DNA of 64,000 bases from Escherichia coli (lineage in GTDB: Bacteria; Pseudomonadota; Gammaproteobacteria; Enterobacterales; Enterobacteriaceae), in NCBI RefSeq assembly GCF_003334335.1, contig NZ_QOWQ01000010.1; one strand, 5' to 3'. The notes under the pieces are model-generated. The model was given only the letters and a program-made list of their open reading frames with translations, was not told the DNA's origin and did not search any database. The translations under genes were made by a program, and so were the position numbers. Shown piece after piece: positions 1,912 through 64,000 of this stretch. Position 1 is the first letter of the stretch, and the number at the start of each line of letters is the position of its first letter.

Positions 1912-2463
1912 ATGCAAACGAAAAAAAATGAAATTTGGGTGGGTATCTTTTTATTAGCAGCACTGCTGGCGGCGCTGTTTGTTTGCCTGAAGGCGGCGAA
2001 CGTGACGTCCATACGTACTGAACCGACCTACACGCTTTATGCGACGTTCGATAACATTGGCGGCCTGAAAGCGCGCTCTCCGGTCAGTATTGGTGGCGTT
2101 GTTGTGGGTCGGGTGGCGGATATTACGCTGGACCCGAAAACCTATCTGCCGCGCGTAACGCTGGAAATTGAACAACGTTATAACCACATTCCAGATACCA
2201 GTTCGCTGAGCATTCGTACTTCCGGCCTGCTGGGGGAACAATATCTGGCATTAAACGTCGGTTTTGAAGACCCGGAACTGGGGACTGCTATCCTGAAGGA
2301 TGGCGATACAATTCAGGACACTAAGTCTGCGATGGTGCTGGAAGATCTCATTGGTCAGTTCCTTTACGGTAGTAAAGGCGATGACAATAAGAATAGTGGC
2401 GATGCGCCAGCTGCTGCGCCAGGTAATAATGAAACCACTGAACCTGTGGGTACAACGAAATAA
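1912..2463 (+). CDS. mlaD: MCE-domain periplasmic substrate-binding protein MlaD
   Basis: ORF-track 1897..2463; start trimmed to ATG at 1912 (MQTKKNEIWVG, N-terminal TM anchor), 183 aa. Confidence 0.9.
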   Translation: MQTKKNEIWVGIFLLAALLAALFVCLKAANVTSIRTEPTYTLYATFDNIGGLKARSPVSIGGVVVGRVADITLDPKTYLPRVTLEIEQRYNHIPDTSSLSIRTSGLLGEQYLALNVGFEDPELGTAILKDGDTIQDTKSAMVLEDLIGQFLYGSKGDDNKNSGDAPAAAPGNNETTEPVGTTK

Positions 2464-9809: not shown

Positions 9810-9920
<111 letters not shown>

Positions 9921-43275: not shown

Positions 43276-43292
43276 TTTGAGGGAAAACATGT

Positions 43293-43375
43293 CGGATGCG
43301 GCGTAAACGCCTTATCTGACCTACGGTTTGTATCGTTGTAGGCCTGATAAGACGCGGCAAGCGTCGCATCAGGCA
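43293..43375. repeat. REP/BIME-type palindromic repeat
   Basis: GTCGGATGCGGCGTAAACGCCTTATCTGACCTAC ... GTAGGCCTGATAAGACGCGGCAAGCGTCGCATCAGGC between yraQ and dolP. Confidence 0.7.
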
Positions 43376-57242: not shown

Positions 57243-58397
57243 TTATGCCTGCCACGGATGAATGATTACGCCTTGCACCACGCGGTTAACGGTGCCACTG
57301 GCTGATGGGGTATCCGGCGTATTGCCCATGTGCAGCGACTGCATCAGTGCAAACGTCTGGGCGTACATCAGGAAGCAAAATGCCTGCTCAACGTCGATAA
57401 AGTGACGTGACGGTGGCAGGATGATATGTGGACCGGCAGCGACGATGTCGCTGCTTTCCGCGGCGATGGCGATTACACGCATTGCCTGGTTGTCACGGCG
57501 AAGTTCAGCCAGCAGATCAAGATCATACTGACGGGTGTAAGGGTGGCTGGAGACAAATACCACCACCAGCGTTTCGTCATCGACCAGCGATTTTGGTCCA
57601 TGACGGAATCCGGTTGGAGAATCATAAAAGGCCGCCAGTTTACCCGCCGTCAGTTCCAGCACTTTCAGCGCCGACTCGCGTGCTGCGCCCTGTAAGCCAC
57701 CGCTACCGAGATAAACGATCCGTTTCCACGGTGCGTAACCAAACACACCTTCGCTGAAATCGCCCAGTGAGGTCAGGATCGCCTGGCAACGATCCGCCAC
57801 GTCGCGGAAGGTTTGGCTGTTGATCGTCTCAGGTGCGAAAACCGCGAGGCAGCTGGCCATCATGGTGGTAATGCTGCTGGTCATCGCAAAGCCGCGATCG
57901 TGCGTTTCTGCGGGCATCAGCAGGGCAAACGCGTTATCGCTGTTGATCGCGTTTTGGTAAAGAGCGCCCGCTTCGTTGCAGGTGATCGGCAGGTGATAGC
58001 ATTCCGGTACAAATTGATTTGCCAGTTCCACGGCTGCGACGCTTTCCGGGCTGTTGCCGGATCGACCGAAGGAGATCAACAGCAGCGGATGAGCTGGGTT
58101 CAGGTAGTCCATCGGATTGGTGACCAGATCGGTGGTCGGTACGGCGCTGAAGTTTTTACCGGTATGGCTGGCGAGCCACGGCGCGATGATGTCACCGATA
58201 AATGCCGACGTTCCGGCTCCGGTCAGGATGATCCGCAGATTCTCTTTGCGCAGTAACGGTTCAAGGAAGTTATTGAGCGCGGAACGTAGCGCGTCGATGT
58301 TGGTGAGTGAACGGATCCATGCGCGAGGCTGATGGCGGATCTCTTTTTCAGTCCATGTACCGGTTGCGGCGGCAGCAGGGGTGTAATTTTCTGGCAT
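57243..58397 (-). CDS. agaS: SIS-domain sugar-phosphate isomerase/deaminase AgaS
   Basis: 384-aa ORF with two SIS domains; first gene of agaS-kbaY-agaBCDI. Confidence 0.92.
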   Translation of the reverse strand: MPENYTPAAAATGTWTEKEIRHQPRAWIRSLTNIDALRSALNNFLEPLLRKENLRIILTGAGTSAFIGDIIAPWLASHTGKNFSAVPTTDLVTNPMDYLNPAHPLLLISFGRSGNSPESVAAVELANQFVPECYHLPITCNEAGALYQNAINSDNAFALLMPAETHDRGFAMTSSITTMMASCLAVFAPETINSQTFRDVADRCQAILTSLGDFSEGVFGYAPWKRIVYLGSGGLQGAARESALKVLELTAGKLAAFYDSPTGFRHGPKSLVDDETLVVVFVSSHPYTRQYDLDLLAELRRDNQAMRVIAIAAESSDIVAAGPHIILPPSRHFIDVEQAFCFLMYAQTFALMQSLHMGNTPDTPSASGTVNRVVQGVIIHPWQA

Positions 58398-58439
58398 AAC
58401 TCAATCCTTAGTCTGATGAACTTGACGTCGGGCGTTGTC

Positions 58440-58580
58440 GCTTTCACTTGCCTTTCGTTTCATTTCACTTGGTGATGTCTTTCGTTGATTAAAATCTATA
58501 GAAAAGAAACTGAAAGTTCAATGGAGAAAAAAGAAATAAAACGAAATTTGTGATCGTTGAAAGAAAAGATAAAGGAAGCA
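58440..58580 (-). promoter_or_regulatory. agaS promoter region with candidate AgaR (DeoR-family) operator repeats
   Basis: Repeated CTTTCGTTTCATTTC / AAACGAAA-type motifs (e.g. CCTTTCGTTTCATTTCACTT, AATAAAACGAAATTTGTG) upstream of agaS. Confidence 0.45.
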
Positions 58581-58590
58581 AAAGGGATTG

Positions 58591-58672
58591 CTGGATGCGG
58601 CGCAAACGCTTTATCCGGCCTTGCGGTCACCAACTGTAGGTCGGATAAGACGCGTTAGCGTCGCATCCGACA
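58591..58672. repeat. REP/BIME-type palindromic repeat
   Basis: GGATGCGGCGCAAACGCTTTATCCGGCC...GTAGGTCGGATAAGACGCGTTAGCGTCGCATCCGAC between agaA and the agaS promoter. Confidence 0.65.
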
Positions 58673-58747
58673 CCGCTGCACAGATCAAAACGAAAGAAAA
58701 AGAAAGGCCTTACGGGGGAAGTGAAGGCCCAATAAAGGAGCAAACTA

Positions 58748-59881
58748 TCAAAACGAAGCTAATTGACCCTGAATCCAGATTTGTTGCACATGTAGCCCGC
58801 TATCCAGCGCAACGACGCTGGCGCGTTTGCCCGGTTTAAGCGATCCCAGAACACCATCAACACCCAGCATTCGCGCCGGATGCAGCGACGCCATATGGAT
58901 GGCTTCCGCAGGCGTTACGCCCGTCAACTCGACCATATTGCGCACTGCCGCATCAACAGACAGCGTACTGCCCGCCAGCCCACCAGACGCGGTACGGACA
59001 ACGCCACCGTGCATCTGCACTTCTTCACCACATAACGTATAGCGACCATCCGGCATCCCAGCTGCCTGCATCGCGTCGGTGATCAGTACGATTCTCTCTT
59101 TCGCACAGCAACAACACAGCGACATTGCCGCCGGATGCACATGATGACCATCGGCTATCAGTTCCAGCCAGGCGCGCTTGTCCGTTAATCCCGCGCCAAC
59201 CATTCCCGGTTCGCGGTGATGTAAACCTGTCATCCCGTTATAGCAATGCACCAGGCCGTCGGCACCAGCATCAAATGCGGCGCGGGTTTGTTGCCAGGTC
59301 GCCGCGCTATGCCCCAGCATCACCCTTACGTTTTGCTGTTTAAGATGGCGGATGGCCTGCAATGCCCCTTCTTTTTCCGGTGCCAGCGCTACCACACGTA
59401 AGGTGTGCTGAGAAACGGCAATCAACTGATCCAGCTCGGCAATTTCAAGCTCGCGAAACAACTCCGGCGGATGCGCGCCTTTATTCTGCGGCGTGAAGTA
59501 CGGTCCTTCGAGATAACTCCCCAGCACTTGCGCACCAGGTCCGCCGCGTTGGCAACGTTGAGCAATACGTTTCAGCGCCGCATGAATGGTATTAAGCGGC
59601 GTGGTTACGGTGGTCGGTAACCAACTGCCGACACCTTCGCGTGCCTTGTGCATTGCCAGCTTGTCGAGTACATCCGGCGCGTCATCCATTACATCAACGC
59701 CCGCACCACCGTGTACATGGGTGTCGATGTAAGCAGGGCAGAGCAGTTCCGCATCGCGTTCAGTCACGCCCGCTGGAATCGGTTCGATTGCTGCGATGAC
59801 ACCGTCAGCAATACGCAACTGATGGTCATCGAGCCATCCCTCTTCAGTCAGCAGCCTTCTGGCGCGCAGAACGTGTGTCAT
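58748..59881 (-). CDS. agaA: N-acetylgalactosamine-6-phosphate deacetylase AgaA (full length)
   Basis: ORF-track 58748..59902 trimmed to ATG 59881 (MTHVLRARRLLTEEGWLDDHQLRIADGVI...), 377 aa, NagA-like amidohydrolase; ATG overlaps agaF stop (ATGA). Confidence 0.88.
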   Translation of the reverse strand: MTHVLRARRLLTEEGWLDDHQLRIADGVIAAIEPIPAGVTERDAELLCPAYIDTHVHGGAGVDVMDDAPDVLDKLAMHKAREGVGSWLPTTVTTPLNTIHAALKRIAQRCQRGGPGAQVLGSYLEGPYFTPQNKGAHPPELFRELEIAELDQLIAVSQHTLRVVALAPEKEGALQAIRHLKQQNVRVMLGHSAATWQQTRAAFDAGADGLVHCYNGMTGLHHREPGMVGAGLTDKRAWLELIADGHHVHPAAMSLCCCCAKERIVLITDAMQAAGMPDGRYTLCGEEVQMHGGVVRTASGGLAGSTLSVDAAVRNMVELTGVTPAEAIHMASLHPARMLGVDGVLGSLKPGKRASVVALDSGLHVQQIWIQGQLASF

Positions 59882-60312
59882 ATTCCTTCCTCGACCGGAC
59901 ATTCTTCATGGCAGCGGCCTAACTCGTCCACCAGACTGGTCAGCCCTCGGTGTCCACACTCCAGCGCCTGTACACGGAATTCTTCACCGCTTAACCCTTC
60001 GCGCTCCAGCACCATCTCCAGTAGCAGTTGCAAATTGGTGCCGGTGATCACTTCACAGCCCGGTTTTTGCATCGCCAGCGTTGAAGCTACGCGAAACGGC
60101 GTGCCGCCCAGCAAATCCGTCAGAAAAACAATGCCGTCTTCACAATCCAGTTGGGCGATGGCCTCTTCAAGCTGCGATGTAAGCAGCGCGGTGCTTGAGG
60201 TTTCCGGAAAATCGATGGCGATAAACTGCGATTGCTCACCGAGAATTTGCTTCATTGCTTTTTCCATGCCGCTGGCAAACCCGCCATGCCCTGTCAAAAT
60301 AATACTTAACAT
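59878..60312 (-). CDS. agaF: GalN PTS EIIA component AgaF
   Basis: 144-aa ORF MLSIILTGHGGFASGMEKAMKQILG..., mannose-family IIA. Confidence 0.88.
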   Translation of the reverse strand: MLSIILTGHGGFASGMEKAMKQILGEQSQFIAIDFPETSSTALLTSQLEEAIAQLDCEDGIVFLTDLLGGTPFRVASTLAMQKPGCEVITGTNLQLLLEMVLEREGLSGEEFRVQALECGHRGLTSLVDELGRCHEECPVEEGI

Positions 60313-60329
60313 CTAATACCTCATTGTAT

Positions 60330-61214
60330 TTAAAGGAAATGGCAGAATTTACCGACGATGCCGAGAACCACGGTAACTGCAATCAGACGCAGCGGACTCC
60401 AGCCGCGGCGTACCAACCAAAACATGGTCAGGGTGTAGACCAACGGTAAGAAGGCCGGCATCAGTTTGTCGATAACATCAGCCTGTAACTTAACCACTGC
60501 GTCGCCCGCCGTGATTTCCAGCGTGGTGCTTAAACGAACATAGGTTGCCACCAGCGCACCGATTACCGTCATCCCAACGATAGACGCAGCATGGCCGACT
60601 TTTTTGGTATTCGCTTTAATCAGTGGAATCGCCGCCACGCCCATGCGGTAAGCATAATGCGCCAGACCAAAACGCAGCCCCAGGTGTACCACGTTGAACA
60701 GCACAATAAAGACGACTGCGCCAAGAATGGAGCCTTGCAATGCCAGACTGGCTCCAATCCCGCCACAAATCGGCAGTAGCGTTAGCCAGAACATTGCATC
60801 GCCAATCCCGCCAAGCGGCGCACCGACGGCAATTTTGGTGCTCTGAATACTGTTAACGTCCTGCTTAGAACGCTCCATCGCAAGGATAATGCCGATAACA
60901 AACGTCACCAGAAACGGATGGGTATTGAAGAAACCCATATGCCCCTTCATGGCGCGCGCCAGGTCGCGTTTATTAGTGTGGATCTTTTTCAGAGCAGGCA
61001 GCAGACCGTACAACCAGCCAGAAGCCTGCATACGTTCGTAGTTAAAAGACGCTTGTAACAGCATGGAACGCCAGGCGACGCGGTTGATATCTTTTTTCGT
61101 CAGCTCCGCGCCAATGCTCTGATCTTCATACACGTTTTCATTGACGCCAGTCAGCAATGTTTCTTCGTTTTCACTGACGTTCGGCAGGGTGGTTTGATTA
61201 GATGCCATCTTCAA
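60330..61214 (-). CDS. agaE: GalN PTS EIID component AgaE
   Basis: 294-aa membrane ORF, paralogous to AgaD (shared SLLQASFNYERMQA motif). Confidence 0.88.
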   Translation of the reverse strand: MKMASNQTTLPNVSENEETLLTGVNENVYEDQSIGAELTKKDINRVAWRSMLLQASFNYERMQASGWLYGLLPALKKIHTNKRDLARAMKGHMGFFNTHPFLVTFVIGIILAMERSKQDVNSIQSTKIAVGAPLGGIGDAMFWLTLLPICGGIGASLALQGSILGAVVFIVLFNVVHLGLRFGLAHYAYRMGVAAIPLIKANTKKVGHAASIVGMTVIGALVATYVRLSTTLEITAGDAVVKLQADVIDKLMPAFLPLVYTLTMFWLVRRGWSPLRLIAVTVVLGIVGKFCHFL

Positions 61215-61977
61215 ATTCCTCTTTCTGTGCCGCAGGTTGAGTCGGTTCAGGAGATTTACGCAGCAAGTCGATCAGCGCCATCGCCAGCGCAGCGGCAGCA
61301 ATAGCCAGCACTGGTAACTTGAGCCAGGCGGCGGCAACAAAGCCCAGGATGAAGTAGGGGATGTAGACGTTTTTCATCATGATTTTCAGCAGCACGGCAA
61401 AACCGATTGCTGGCATGATGCCGCCCGCGACGCCGAGGCCGTCGATTAATCGTTGCGGCAGGACATCAATGATGGTTTTTGCATGTTCCGCGCCGAAGTA
61501 GATAGGCAGGAAAGCGCAGAGAAAATAGAAAATGCCGAGTGCCAGCAGTGCCAGATAGTTCACGCGTTCAATGCCGCGAGTATCGGCGTTCTCCGCCATC
61601 CGGTCGCAGCGAGACATCACGCCGGACATCACCGAGAACAGGAAGGTAATCCCCATCTGTACTGCGACAGCGAAAGGTACGGCGACACCTACTGCGACAT
61701 CGGGTTTCACGCCAGTAGTAATGGCAAACGCCGTGCCGACGATAGTACCGATAATCACGTTAGGCGGCTGTGCGCCCGCCAGCGGGGCCAGCCCCATCCA
61801 CACCAGTTCCAGCGTACCGCCGGTTAAAATTCCGGTATGCAGATCGCCAAGTACCAGCCCGACCAACGGGCCGAGGACCACCGGGCGGTGCATATGGGTT
61901 AGGCCGTTAAACATATCCAGGCCAGCGATAAAGGCGATAATGCCCAACGCAAATGCCTGCAACAGGCTGATTTCCAT
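61198..61977 (-). CDS. agaW: GalNAc PTS EIIC component AgaW (full length)
   Basis: 259-aa membrane ORF, paralogous to AgaC. Confidence 0.88.
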   Translation of the reverse strand: MEISLLQAFALGIIAFIAGLDMFNGLTHMHRPVVLGPLVGLVLGDLHTGILTGGTLELVWMGLAPLAGAQPPNVIIGTIVGTAFAITTGVKPDVAVGVAVPFAVAVQMGITFLFSVMSGVMSRCDRMAENADTRGIERVNYLALLALGIFYFLCAFLPIYFGAEHAKTIIDVLPQRLIDGLGVAGGIMPAIGFAVLLKIMMKNVYIPYFILGFVAAAWLKLPVLAIAAAALAMALIDLLRKSPEPTQPAAQKEEFEDGI

Positions 61978-62483: not shown

Positions 62484-63764
62484 TTATTGGCCTTCACAGG
62501 CTGTGTGGTACTGCGCCAGGATGTCCTGAATATGGTTGATAATGAGTTCCCGTGGCGTTGGCTGCAGCTCGCCGGAGCGAACTTTCACGTACTGCAGCGG
62601 CAGATACTGGCTGATCAGCGGCAGCGGAATTGGTGAATCCGCCAGATTACGTACCAGATGAGCGAAAGCGTCATCAATCTGGCTGTCCGGCCAGTAATAG
62701 CGCACGCGATCCGAGTAGCTATAACCACGCGCCAGACGACGCGCGTTGCCGTCACCGTGGTAGTGGCTTTGCCAGTATTCCGGGCGGTCGAGCATCACGT
62801 CTTCCAGCACCTGACGCAGACCAGAACAGGCTTTCGCTGGCACCAGTTCTTCTTCAATCGCCGCCAGAGAGAACAGAGCTTCACGCAGGGCGAAGGTCAG
62901 CGCTGGGCCAACTTTCAGAATGGCAAAGTGGTCAATCACCAGCTGGCGCAGCGATTGCGGCGTTTGATAATCGGTAGAGTGCGCTTCGAAAATCAGCGTT
63001 TCGTAGTTTTCGACCATCTGGCTTAAGGCGCTCGCTTTGGCGGGCTGATAATCAATAACGTTGGTGTGATCGAATTCGACGCCGGGTTGAACCACCAGGG
63101 CAATGATGCGTGGCCAGATGGCATTCAAACCTTGCTTTTCAAAGGCGTGACGATGGGCTTCCAGCGTGGCGCGGGCGGCATCCGGCGTGGTGACCGCCAG
63201 CTCGCTTAAGGTTTCATGCGCGCCGCCAGGTACCGGCACTTCGGTACCAATGACATACTCCAGATCGGCTTCGCCAAAGTGTTCAAGACAGGTTTCTTCC
63301 GCCACTTTCGCCAGACGGGCGGCGCGTTCAGCCACGATGTCATCAGTTAAGGGAATCGGATCGTCCTGACAGGACATGCTGCAATCAAGGTGGATTTTTT
63401 TGAATCCTGCCGCAACGTAGCTTTTAATCAAATCATCGGCATTGGCCATTGCCTGAGCGGCCGGCAGGTTTTGCCAGCGGTTTGGCCCCAGATGGTCACC
63501 ACCCAGAATCAACGCATCCTGCGGGAAATTCAACGAGTCGGCGAGCTGACAAACAAAGCCGCGAAAATCGGCGGGCGTCATTCCGGTATAACCGCCGAAC
63601 TGGTCTACCTGATTGGAGGTTGCTTCAATCAGTAACGGCGTTTGGTTTGCACTGGCGTAGCGGATTGCAGCCTCCAGCACCAGCGGATGTGCGGAACAAA
63701 CGGCATAAATTCCATTTGTTTTGCCCGCTTTGTGCTGTCTCACCATTTCTGTCAGATGTTTCAC
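62484..63764 (-). CDS. kbaZ: Tagatose-bisphosphate aldolase non-catalytic subunit KbaZ (AgaZ)
   Basis: 426-aa [36 protein letters not shown]... initiating at GTG; first gene of kbaZ-agaVWEFA. Confidence 0.92.
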
Positions 63765-63779: not shown

Positions 63780-64000
63780 AGATTACTGCGATATTAATCT
63801 TTCGTTTTGTTTCAGTTGATACTGCGTCATGGTGAGATAAAAATAAAACGAAAGATAATAGTTTTCTGATCTGTTTCACAAAAGAAACATAATGAAAGTC
63901 ACTGAAACGAGAGTAGCTTGCGTCAATGGGCAAGGTGGGCTTGCATTTGCTTAATAGAAAGGCGTTAATAGGCAAAACGAAATGAAACGAAAGTTTTACG
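63780..64000. promoter_or_regulatory. kbaZ upstream control region with candidate AgaR operator repeats
   Basis: Multiple copies of TTTCGTTT/AAACGAAA motifs (CTTTCGTTTTGTTTCAG, AAATAAAACGAAAGATAAT, GGCAAAACGAAATGAAACGAAAG) upstream of kbaZ; window ends before any divergent agaR CDS. Confidence 0.45.

Follow-up and report, generated by a model that had tools for sequence, protein, structure and literature searches.

Our analysis indicated that positions 58440-58570 of the window (the whole 64-kb stretch of Escherichia coli DNA analysed) very probably form an array of AgaR operators around PS, the promoter of agaS, and that a terminator and a REP pair (BIME) lie between this array and agaA. We concluded that the motif cluster proximal to agaS represents AgaR operators at the agaS promoter, a finding that is real but ordinary and already published. 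According to the passages of Hu et al. 2013 that cite Ray & Larson 2004, AgaR binds the agaR, kbaZ and agaS promoters (PR, PZ and PS, respectively), and Hu et al. reported a 20-fold induction of a Ps-lacZ fusion by GalNAc and constitutive agaS expression in a delta-agaR strain. Whereas AgaR binding at PS, PZ and PR and the repression are published, we infer from the sequence the contacts of AgaR with individual blocks, the exact promoter hexamers and the cooperativity of binding.

In the RefSeq annotation of an identical strain, the gene order is agaI-agaD-agaC-agaB-kbaY-agaS / agaA(nagA)-agaF-agaE-agaW-agaV-kbaZ / agaR, with agaR divergent from kbaZ, and the published operon split is kbaZ-agaVWEFA and agaS-kbaY-agaBCDI. 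As annotated in RefSeq for the identical E. coli locus and for K-12, agaS (57243-58397), agaA (58748-59902, labelled nagA by PGAP) and kbaZ (62484-63764) all lie on the minus strand, and agaR begins some 13 bp beyond the last base of the window. The agaA-agaS spacer, flanked by minus-strand genes, therefore spans 350 bp (58398-58747). A 381-bp query around the finding matched 5344 of 5426 complete E. coli genomes, the features beneath it being agaS and nagA/agaA. The agaA, agaF, agaE and agaW ORFs are intact at 58748-61977, the K-12 agaW'-agaA' deletion being absent from the window; in K-12 (NC_000913) the agaW-agaA segment consists of pseudogenes, yet the agaA-agaS spacer of K-12 MG1655 (3281626-3281975) is identical to that of the window base for base. 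Compared with the AgaR operators described for the E. coli aga/gam regulon (Ray & Larson 2004), the array thus belongs to the same organism, the same locus and the same promoter, PS, in a spacer equal to that of K-12, and there is no substantive difference beyond the intact agaW-agaA segment.

The initial annotation had described TTTC/GAAA-rich motifs as dense upstream of agaS. The strings that it quoted are present, and the agaA-agaS spacer is the TTTC/GAAA density maximum of the window, containing 16 such tetramers where a 350-bp window has on average 4.1 (SD, 1.95). On the plus strand, CTTTCGTTTCATTTC occurs at 58452-58466 and AAACGAAAGAAA at 58688-58699. Sharing between the two aga spacers was evaluated without any prior consensus, with the REP removed and with 300 dinucleotide-preserving shuffles, the agaS spacer being compared with the 236 bp of the kbaZ-agaR spacer that lie inside the window. 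This revealed 36 pairs of 15-mers at ≤2 mismatches, while the shuffles gave 0.38 ± 0.89 (maximum, 5), and CTTTCGTTTCATTTC was found to be an exact 15-mer common to both spacers, a degree of sharing far beyond chance. Hence, the claim that the same motif family recurs upstream of kbaZ was borne out, and the analysis that could have overturned it, by yielding no significant motif common to both promoter regions, instead yielded significant sharing. These data also bear on whether the TTTC/GAAA richness is nothing more than non-specific low complexity, or promoter DNA that is curved and AT-rich, and serves no sequence-specific function, a reading whose probability we regard as next to negligible. 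The spacer is indeed T-rich on one strand, and some copies (CAACGAAAG at 58476-58484 and GTGAAAGCG at 58439-58447) are lineage-specific extras in E. coli that are unconserved elsewhere; however, the dinucleotide-preserving shuffles never came near the observed sharing, and the blocks keep their sequence, position, orientation and spacing in 71 species, in which the flanking DNA is not alignable.

Next to these consensus-free data stand two pattern scans. The core CTTTCRTTTYRTTTY, allowing ≤2 mismatches, matched 13 times in 64 kb versus 2.39 expected, with 11 of the 13 matches located in the two aga spacers. A 24-nt AgaR consensus, allowing ≤3 mismatches, matched 7 times versus 0.21 expected, and all matches except one fell in the two aga spacers (6/7); scanning locus L002 with it gave the same result as the window. 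For this consensus, which Ray and Larson are said to have given in 2004 as WRMMTTTCRTTTYRTTTYNYTTKK, a full-text literature search for the string gave no match; the shuffle test and the published PkbaZ operator were used as independent support. The sole 24-nt match outside the aga spacers (1914-1937, minus strand, CAAATTTCATTTTTTTTCGTTTGC, 3 mismatches) sits where the plus-strand ORFs 1125-1907 and 1897-2463 meet, and it is probably fortuitous, the DNA there being T-rich.

AgaR had been proposed as the candidate repressor from the sequence, and this assignment is upheld by the published binding at all three promoters and by a sequence match to a published site. Guharajan et al. 2021 (PMC8667592, Table S3) give CTTTCGTTTCATTTTCGTTT as the PkbaZ sequence to which AgaR binds and found that AgaR repressed a synthetic promoter via this sequence. 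Within the window, CTTTCGTTTCATTTTCGTTT corresponds to 63973-63996; the 15 bases with which it begins recur unchanged at 58452-58466, in the spacer directly upstream of agaS that contains PS, the promoter reported to be bound and repressed by AgaR. No relevant AgaR ChIP or motif data emerged from additional literature searches. It could be argued that the motifs are bound by another regulator, such as a DeoR-family paralogue or an amino-sugar regulator, and that AgaR acts elsewhere, as the assignment of the blocks here draws on sequence and citations. We consider this very improbable, given that the PkbaZ site of the same sequence conferred AgaR-dependent repression on a synthetic promoter, that AgaR binding has been published for all three promoters, and that the motif is almost wholly confined to the aga spacers within the 64 kb.

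At the other AgaR-controlled promoters, those of kbaZ and agaR, four motif copies were identified within 63796-63996. The predicted operator proximal to kbaZ (63796-63819, plus strand, antisense to kbaZ) contains the core CTTTCGTTTTGTTTC, with no mismatch to the core and 3 to the 24-mer. The remaining three are on the minus strand: a predicted operator core, CTTTCGTTTTATTTT, at 63840-63854, which matches the core perfectly and differs from the U site upstream of agaS by 1 mismatch over 15 nt; a predicted operator at 63878-63901 with 1 mismatch to the 24-mer; and the operator beside agaR, AAACTTTCGTTTCATTTCGTTTTG, at 63973-63996, which has no mismatch to the 24-mer and is the published PkbaZ sequence. 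These four copies of the same motif would serve the divergent kbaZ and agaR promoters, PZ and PR.

For the region around PS, 71 agaS loci from Enterobacterales were compared, comprising Escherichia, Citrobacter, Klebsiella, Raoultella, Kluyvera, Enterobacter, Salmonella diarizonae, Yersinia, Buttiauxella and Cedecea. Most of the 71 loci have agaA or agaF upstream and kbaY downstream of agaS. The gene upstream of agaS varies (L010, L071, L027, L034, L043, L045, L058, L064-L070 and L075): E. coli E69 (L010) and about 14 other species have no agaA between agaF and agaS, and the Escherichia albertii locus (L071) has neither agaA nor agaF upstream. The final 215 bp before agaS gave a near-gapless alignment in which conserved islands stand within diverged DNA. 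From Escherichia to Yersinia, these islands are three blocks, designated U, S and D, together with the promoter elements TTGAAC-17-TAGATT.

Block D contains a predicted AgaR operator, TGCCTTTCGTTTCATTTCACTTGG (58449-58472, plus strand), which is oriented antisense to agaS within the predicted leader, at about +15 to +38. It shows no mismatch to the 24-nt consensus, and its 15-nt core is identical both to the kbaZ operator core at 63979-63993 and to the published PkbaZ sequence. The block (58450-58472, AAGTGAAAcGAAACGAAAG) was found in 69 of the 71 loci at a conserved position. Block U contains a second predicted operator, CAAATTTCGTTTTATTTCTTTTTT (58527-58550, minus strand), close upstream of the predicted -35 element (about -41 to -64) and in the agaS sense, with 1 mismatch to the 24-nt consensus and 1 to the core; the conserved block (58527-58556, GATCACAAnTTTCGTTTTATTTC) is present in 58 loci. 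U and D together form an inverted repeat of 14 nt with 93% complementarity (I4), and 48 of the 58 loci keep a U-to-D spacing of 80-82 nt, a conservation that suggests cooperative or looped binding of AgaR. Between them lies the operator-like block S, CTTTCAGTTTCTTTT (58502-58516, minus strand), within the predicted -35/-10 spacer at -16 to -30. It has 2 mismatches to the core and a consensus-base frequency mostly ≥0.9 across the 71 species, and it was detected at ≤2 mismatches in 57 of the 71 loci; block S may likewise be bound by AgaR.

The predicted sigma-70 promoter PS (58493-58521, minus strand) consists of a -35 element, TTGAAC (58521-58516), a 17-nt spacer and a -10 element, TAGATT (58498-58493), which places the predicted agaS transcription start near 58486. 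The pattern TTGAnn-N17-TAnAwT was present in 64 of the 71 loci, and the island comprising the promoter and block S (58491-58523, CATTGAACTTTCgaTTTCTTTTCTATAGATTTT) again shows a consensus-base frequency mostly ≥0.9. A consensus scan of 58300-58850 for promoters and terminators called nothing; PS escaped it because no more than 8 of the 12 hexamer positions fit the consensus, and both PS and the terminator described below were recovered by the comparative analysis after that scan. Further downstream, the agaS ribosome-binding site, CTAAGGA (58405-58411, minus strand), is conserved across genera, with 7 nt between its end and the ATG at 58397. We considered a riboswitch or another RNA element in the agaS leader and rejected it, since the folding is not unusual (z = +0.80) and Rfam gave only REP-related sub-threshold matches.

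On the agaA side of the array, the REP palindrome reported in the initial annotation at 58591-58672 was found to be a pair of REP units at 58589-58672. Unit a (Y-like, 58589-58623, plus strand) is nearer to agaS and aligns to the canonical REPs at 9880 and 43291 with a mean column identity of 82%; unit b (Z-like, 58638-58672, minus strand) is linked to the pair by inverted repeats I2, I7 and I9, and the two units, inverted relative to each other, make up an extragenic BIME between agaA and agaS. The units are imperfect palindromes of about 35 nt in which the signature columns GGATGCGRCG ... CTTATCCGRCCTAC are invariant, and folding of the two units together gives -39.8 kcal/mol (z = -2.99). 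A scan with a Y-type REP consensus at ≤3 mismatches missed both local units, each of which has >3 mismatches, and it was the alignment to the two canonical REPs of the window that confirmed them; those canonical units, at 9880-9913 (minus strand) and 43291-43324 (plus strand), have 0 and 3 mismatches to the Y-type consensus, respectively. Thus, the pair resembles the REP/BIME elements of E. coli, including the other REPs in the window, in its two inverted, imperfect ~35-nt palindromes and its extragenic position downstream of an operon, and it differs from them in that both units have diverged somewhat from the Y consensus and unit a is polymorphic between lineages. Three sub-threshold Rfam matches to naRNA4 (RF02564), a REP-derived nucleoid-associated RNA family, cover 58589-58709 with 28-31 bits versus a gathering score of 59.5; these matches reflect REP similarity and not an naRNA4 gene. 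A second-place match elsewhere in E. coli genomes (H20) covers the REP part alone.

Among the 71 loci, REP cores occur in only four, all from Escherichia (L007-L010), and other genera carry an unrelated AT-rich stretch or nothing at the BIME position. Within E. coli, unit a is polymorphic: O157:H7, UPEC85 and FDAARGOS_1288 (L004, L005 and L006) have a different REP-like segment of similar length, while K-12-like and O150:H6 lineages carry one common version of 58589-58636, and the operators on either side of this polymorphic segment are nearly invariant. Because the pair is restricted to Escherichia among the 71 loci and polymorphic in E. coli, we regard it as a lineage-restricted insertion that stands outside the regulatory design and is dispensable for regulation.

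Beyond the REP pair, a hairpin, GGGCCUUcAC-UUCCCCC-GUAAGGCCU (58705-58730, minus strand), starts 18 nt downstream of the agaA stop codon, and the T-tract CTTTCTTTTTCTTTCGTTTT (58684-58706, minus strand), which contains the distal AAACGAAAGAAA copy, directly follows it, so that the operon end reads as hairpin and then UUUCUUUUUCUUUCGUUUU. In E. coli the hairpin has modest stability (-10.2 kcal/mol; the 71-nt piece gives z = -0.55), and it was missed by the simple scan because of that scan's bulge and loop rule. In 65 of 72 sequences, an equivalent hairpin with a differing stem ends exactly at the tract CTTTCTTTTCCTTTC, examples of stems among genera being GGCCTTACG/CGTAAGGC, GGTCTGCGGC/GCAGAC and GTCTGTCGC/GCGACAGAC. 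All 5 predicted pairs show double changes, and at one stem position 27 sequences have CG where 13 have UA; as the MAFFT alignment of the hairpin is partly out of register, the per-sequence folds provide the cleaner evidence. The hairpin and T-tract are best read as an intrinsic terminator that ends kbaZ-agaVWEFA, which fits the published division of the cluster into two operons. Like Rho-independent terminators in general, the element combines a GC-rich hairpin carrying compensatory changes with a T-rich tract just past the stop codon of the last gene; it differs from them in that the E. coli stem is bulged and modestly stable and the T-tract is broken by conserved C positions. Most loci lacking agaA retain both terminator and tract. 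In L011-L069, a conserved CCTTTCATTGTG-like block falls within the first ~20 nt that follow the stop codon of agaA (or agaF), directly adjoining it and preceding the terminator hairpin, and Escherichia has a different sequence where the other genera carry this block.

Accordingly, of the motifs that the initial annotation had placed on both sides of the REP, those on the agaS side stand as operator blocks, while those on the agaA side are primarily a terminator U-tract, and the operator role proposed for them was not sustained. A tentative possibility is that 58684-58709 is nonetheless a true AgaR operator, besides or instead of being a terminator tail, for example one that loops to PS or blocks read-through from agaA into agaS. 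The distal match at 58686-58709 has 3 mismatches to the 24-nt consensus and 2 to the core, and it presents three (C)TTTC pentamers at the operator-like spacing of 5 bp. In addition, CTTTCTTTTCCTTTC is nearly invariant from Escherichia to Yersinia, with 0 mismatches in most of the 65 sequences, while the adjoining stem and loop vary freely, and its C positions, unusual in a U-tract, show less variation than a U-tract by itself would require. Set against this, the distal tract, CTTTC-T-TTTT-C-TTTC, has pyrimidines at both inter-pentamer positions, where the seven best operator-core matches have purines, and a T-rich tail can match a T-rich consensus at low stringency through composition alone. 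Moreover, the distance to U, which itself lies at about -153 from the agaS ATG, differs between genera: the tract starts at about -309, -253 or -190 to -199 depending on the genus (loci L007-L077 have it some 190-310 nt upstream of agaS), and its distance to the promoter varies by >100 bp. We therefore retain the terminator as the reading of this tract.

The conserved C positions could nevertheless reflect a second function of the tract, either as an AgaR site or in a 3'-UTR RNA role. One rather doubtful version of this idea is that CTTTCTTTTCCTTTC is bifunctional, acting in RNA as the terminator U-tract and in DNA as a low-affinity AgaR site that would link the PS array with the end of the first aga operon, either through looping or by forming a roadblock to read-through. 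If so, the insertion of the BIME in Escherichia would have moved the tract further from the promoter, by ~55 bp relative to Citrobacter-like loci and up to ~110 bp relative to Enterobacter.

With the terminator and the BIME set apart, the proximal blocks suggest how PS may be controlled. In the proposed mechanism, AgaR, a DeoR-family repressor, would occupy the array around PS, which drives agaS-kbaY-agaBCDI of the N-acetylgalactosamine/galactosamine cluster. Each operator is composed of 5-bp direct repeats (TTTCR/TTTYR), three of which make up the core CTTTCRTTTYRTTTY. The putative layout places one operator just upstream of the -35 element, an operator-like block in the -35/-10 spacer and an inverted operator in the early transcribed region. 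With an AgaR oligomer on all of them, RNA polymerase would be either kept out or trapped, and growth on GalNAc or GalN relieves the repression.

Repeated operators around and downstream of a promoter, bound by repressor oligomers, are known for the DeoR-family sugar repressors GlpR and DeoR, whose sites are palindromes of about 16-20 bp. The title of the 2004 paper by Ray and Larson names dominant-negative AgaR variants, and the repressor oligomerises. The agaS array resembles the GlpR and DeoR arrays in that several operator copies flank or overlap the promoter, the spacing between U and D is conserved, and the repressor forms oligomers; in contrast to their palindromes, the AgaR core consists of consecutive 5-bp direct repeats (TTTCR).

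Taken together, the array belongs to a published AgaR operator system at a published locus, the neighbouring BIME and terminator are likewise ordinary elements, and the value of the analysis lies mainly in annotating a textbook-level sugar regulon of E. coli. The cross-genus footprint adds modestly to this, as it identifies the operator blocks that are ancestral across Enterobacterales.
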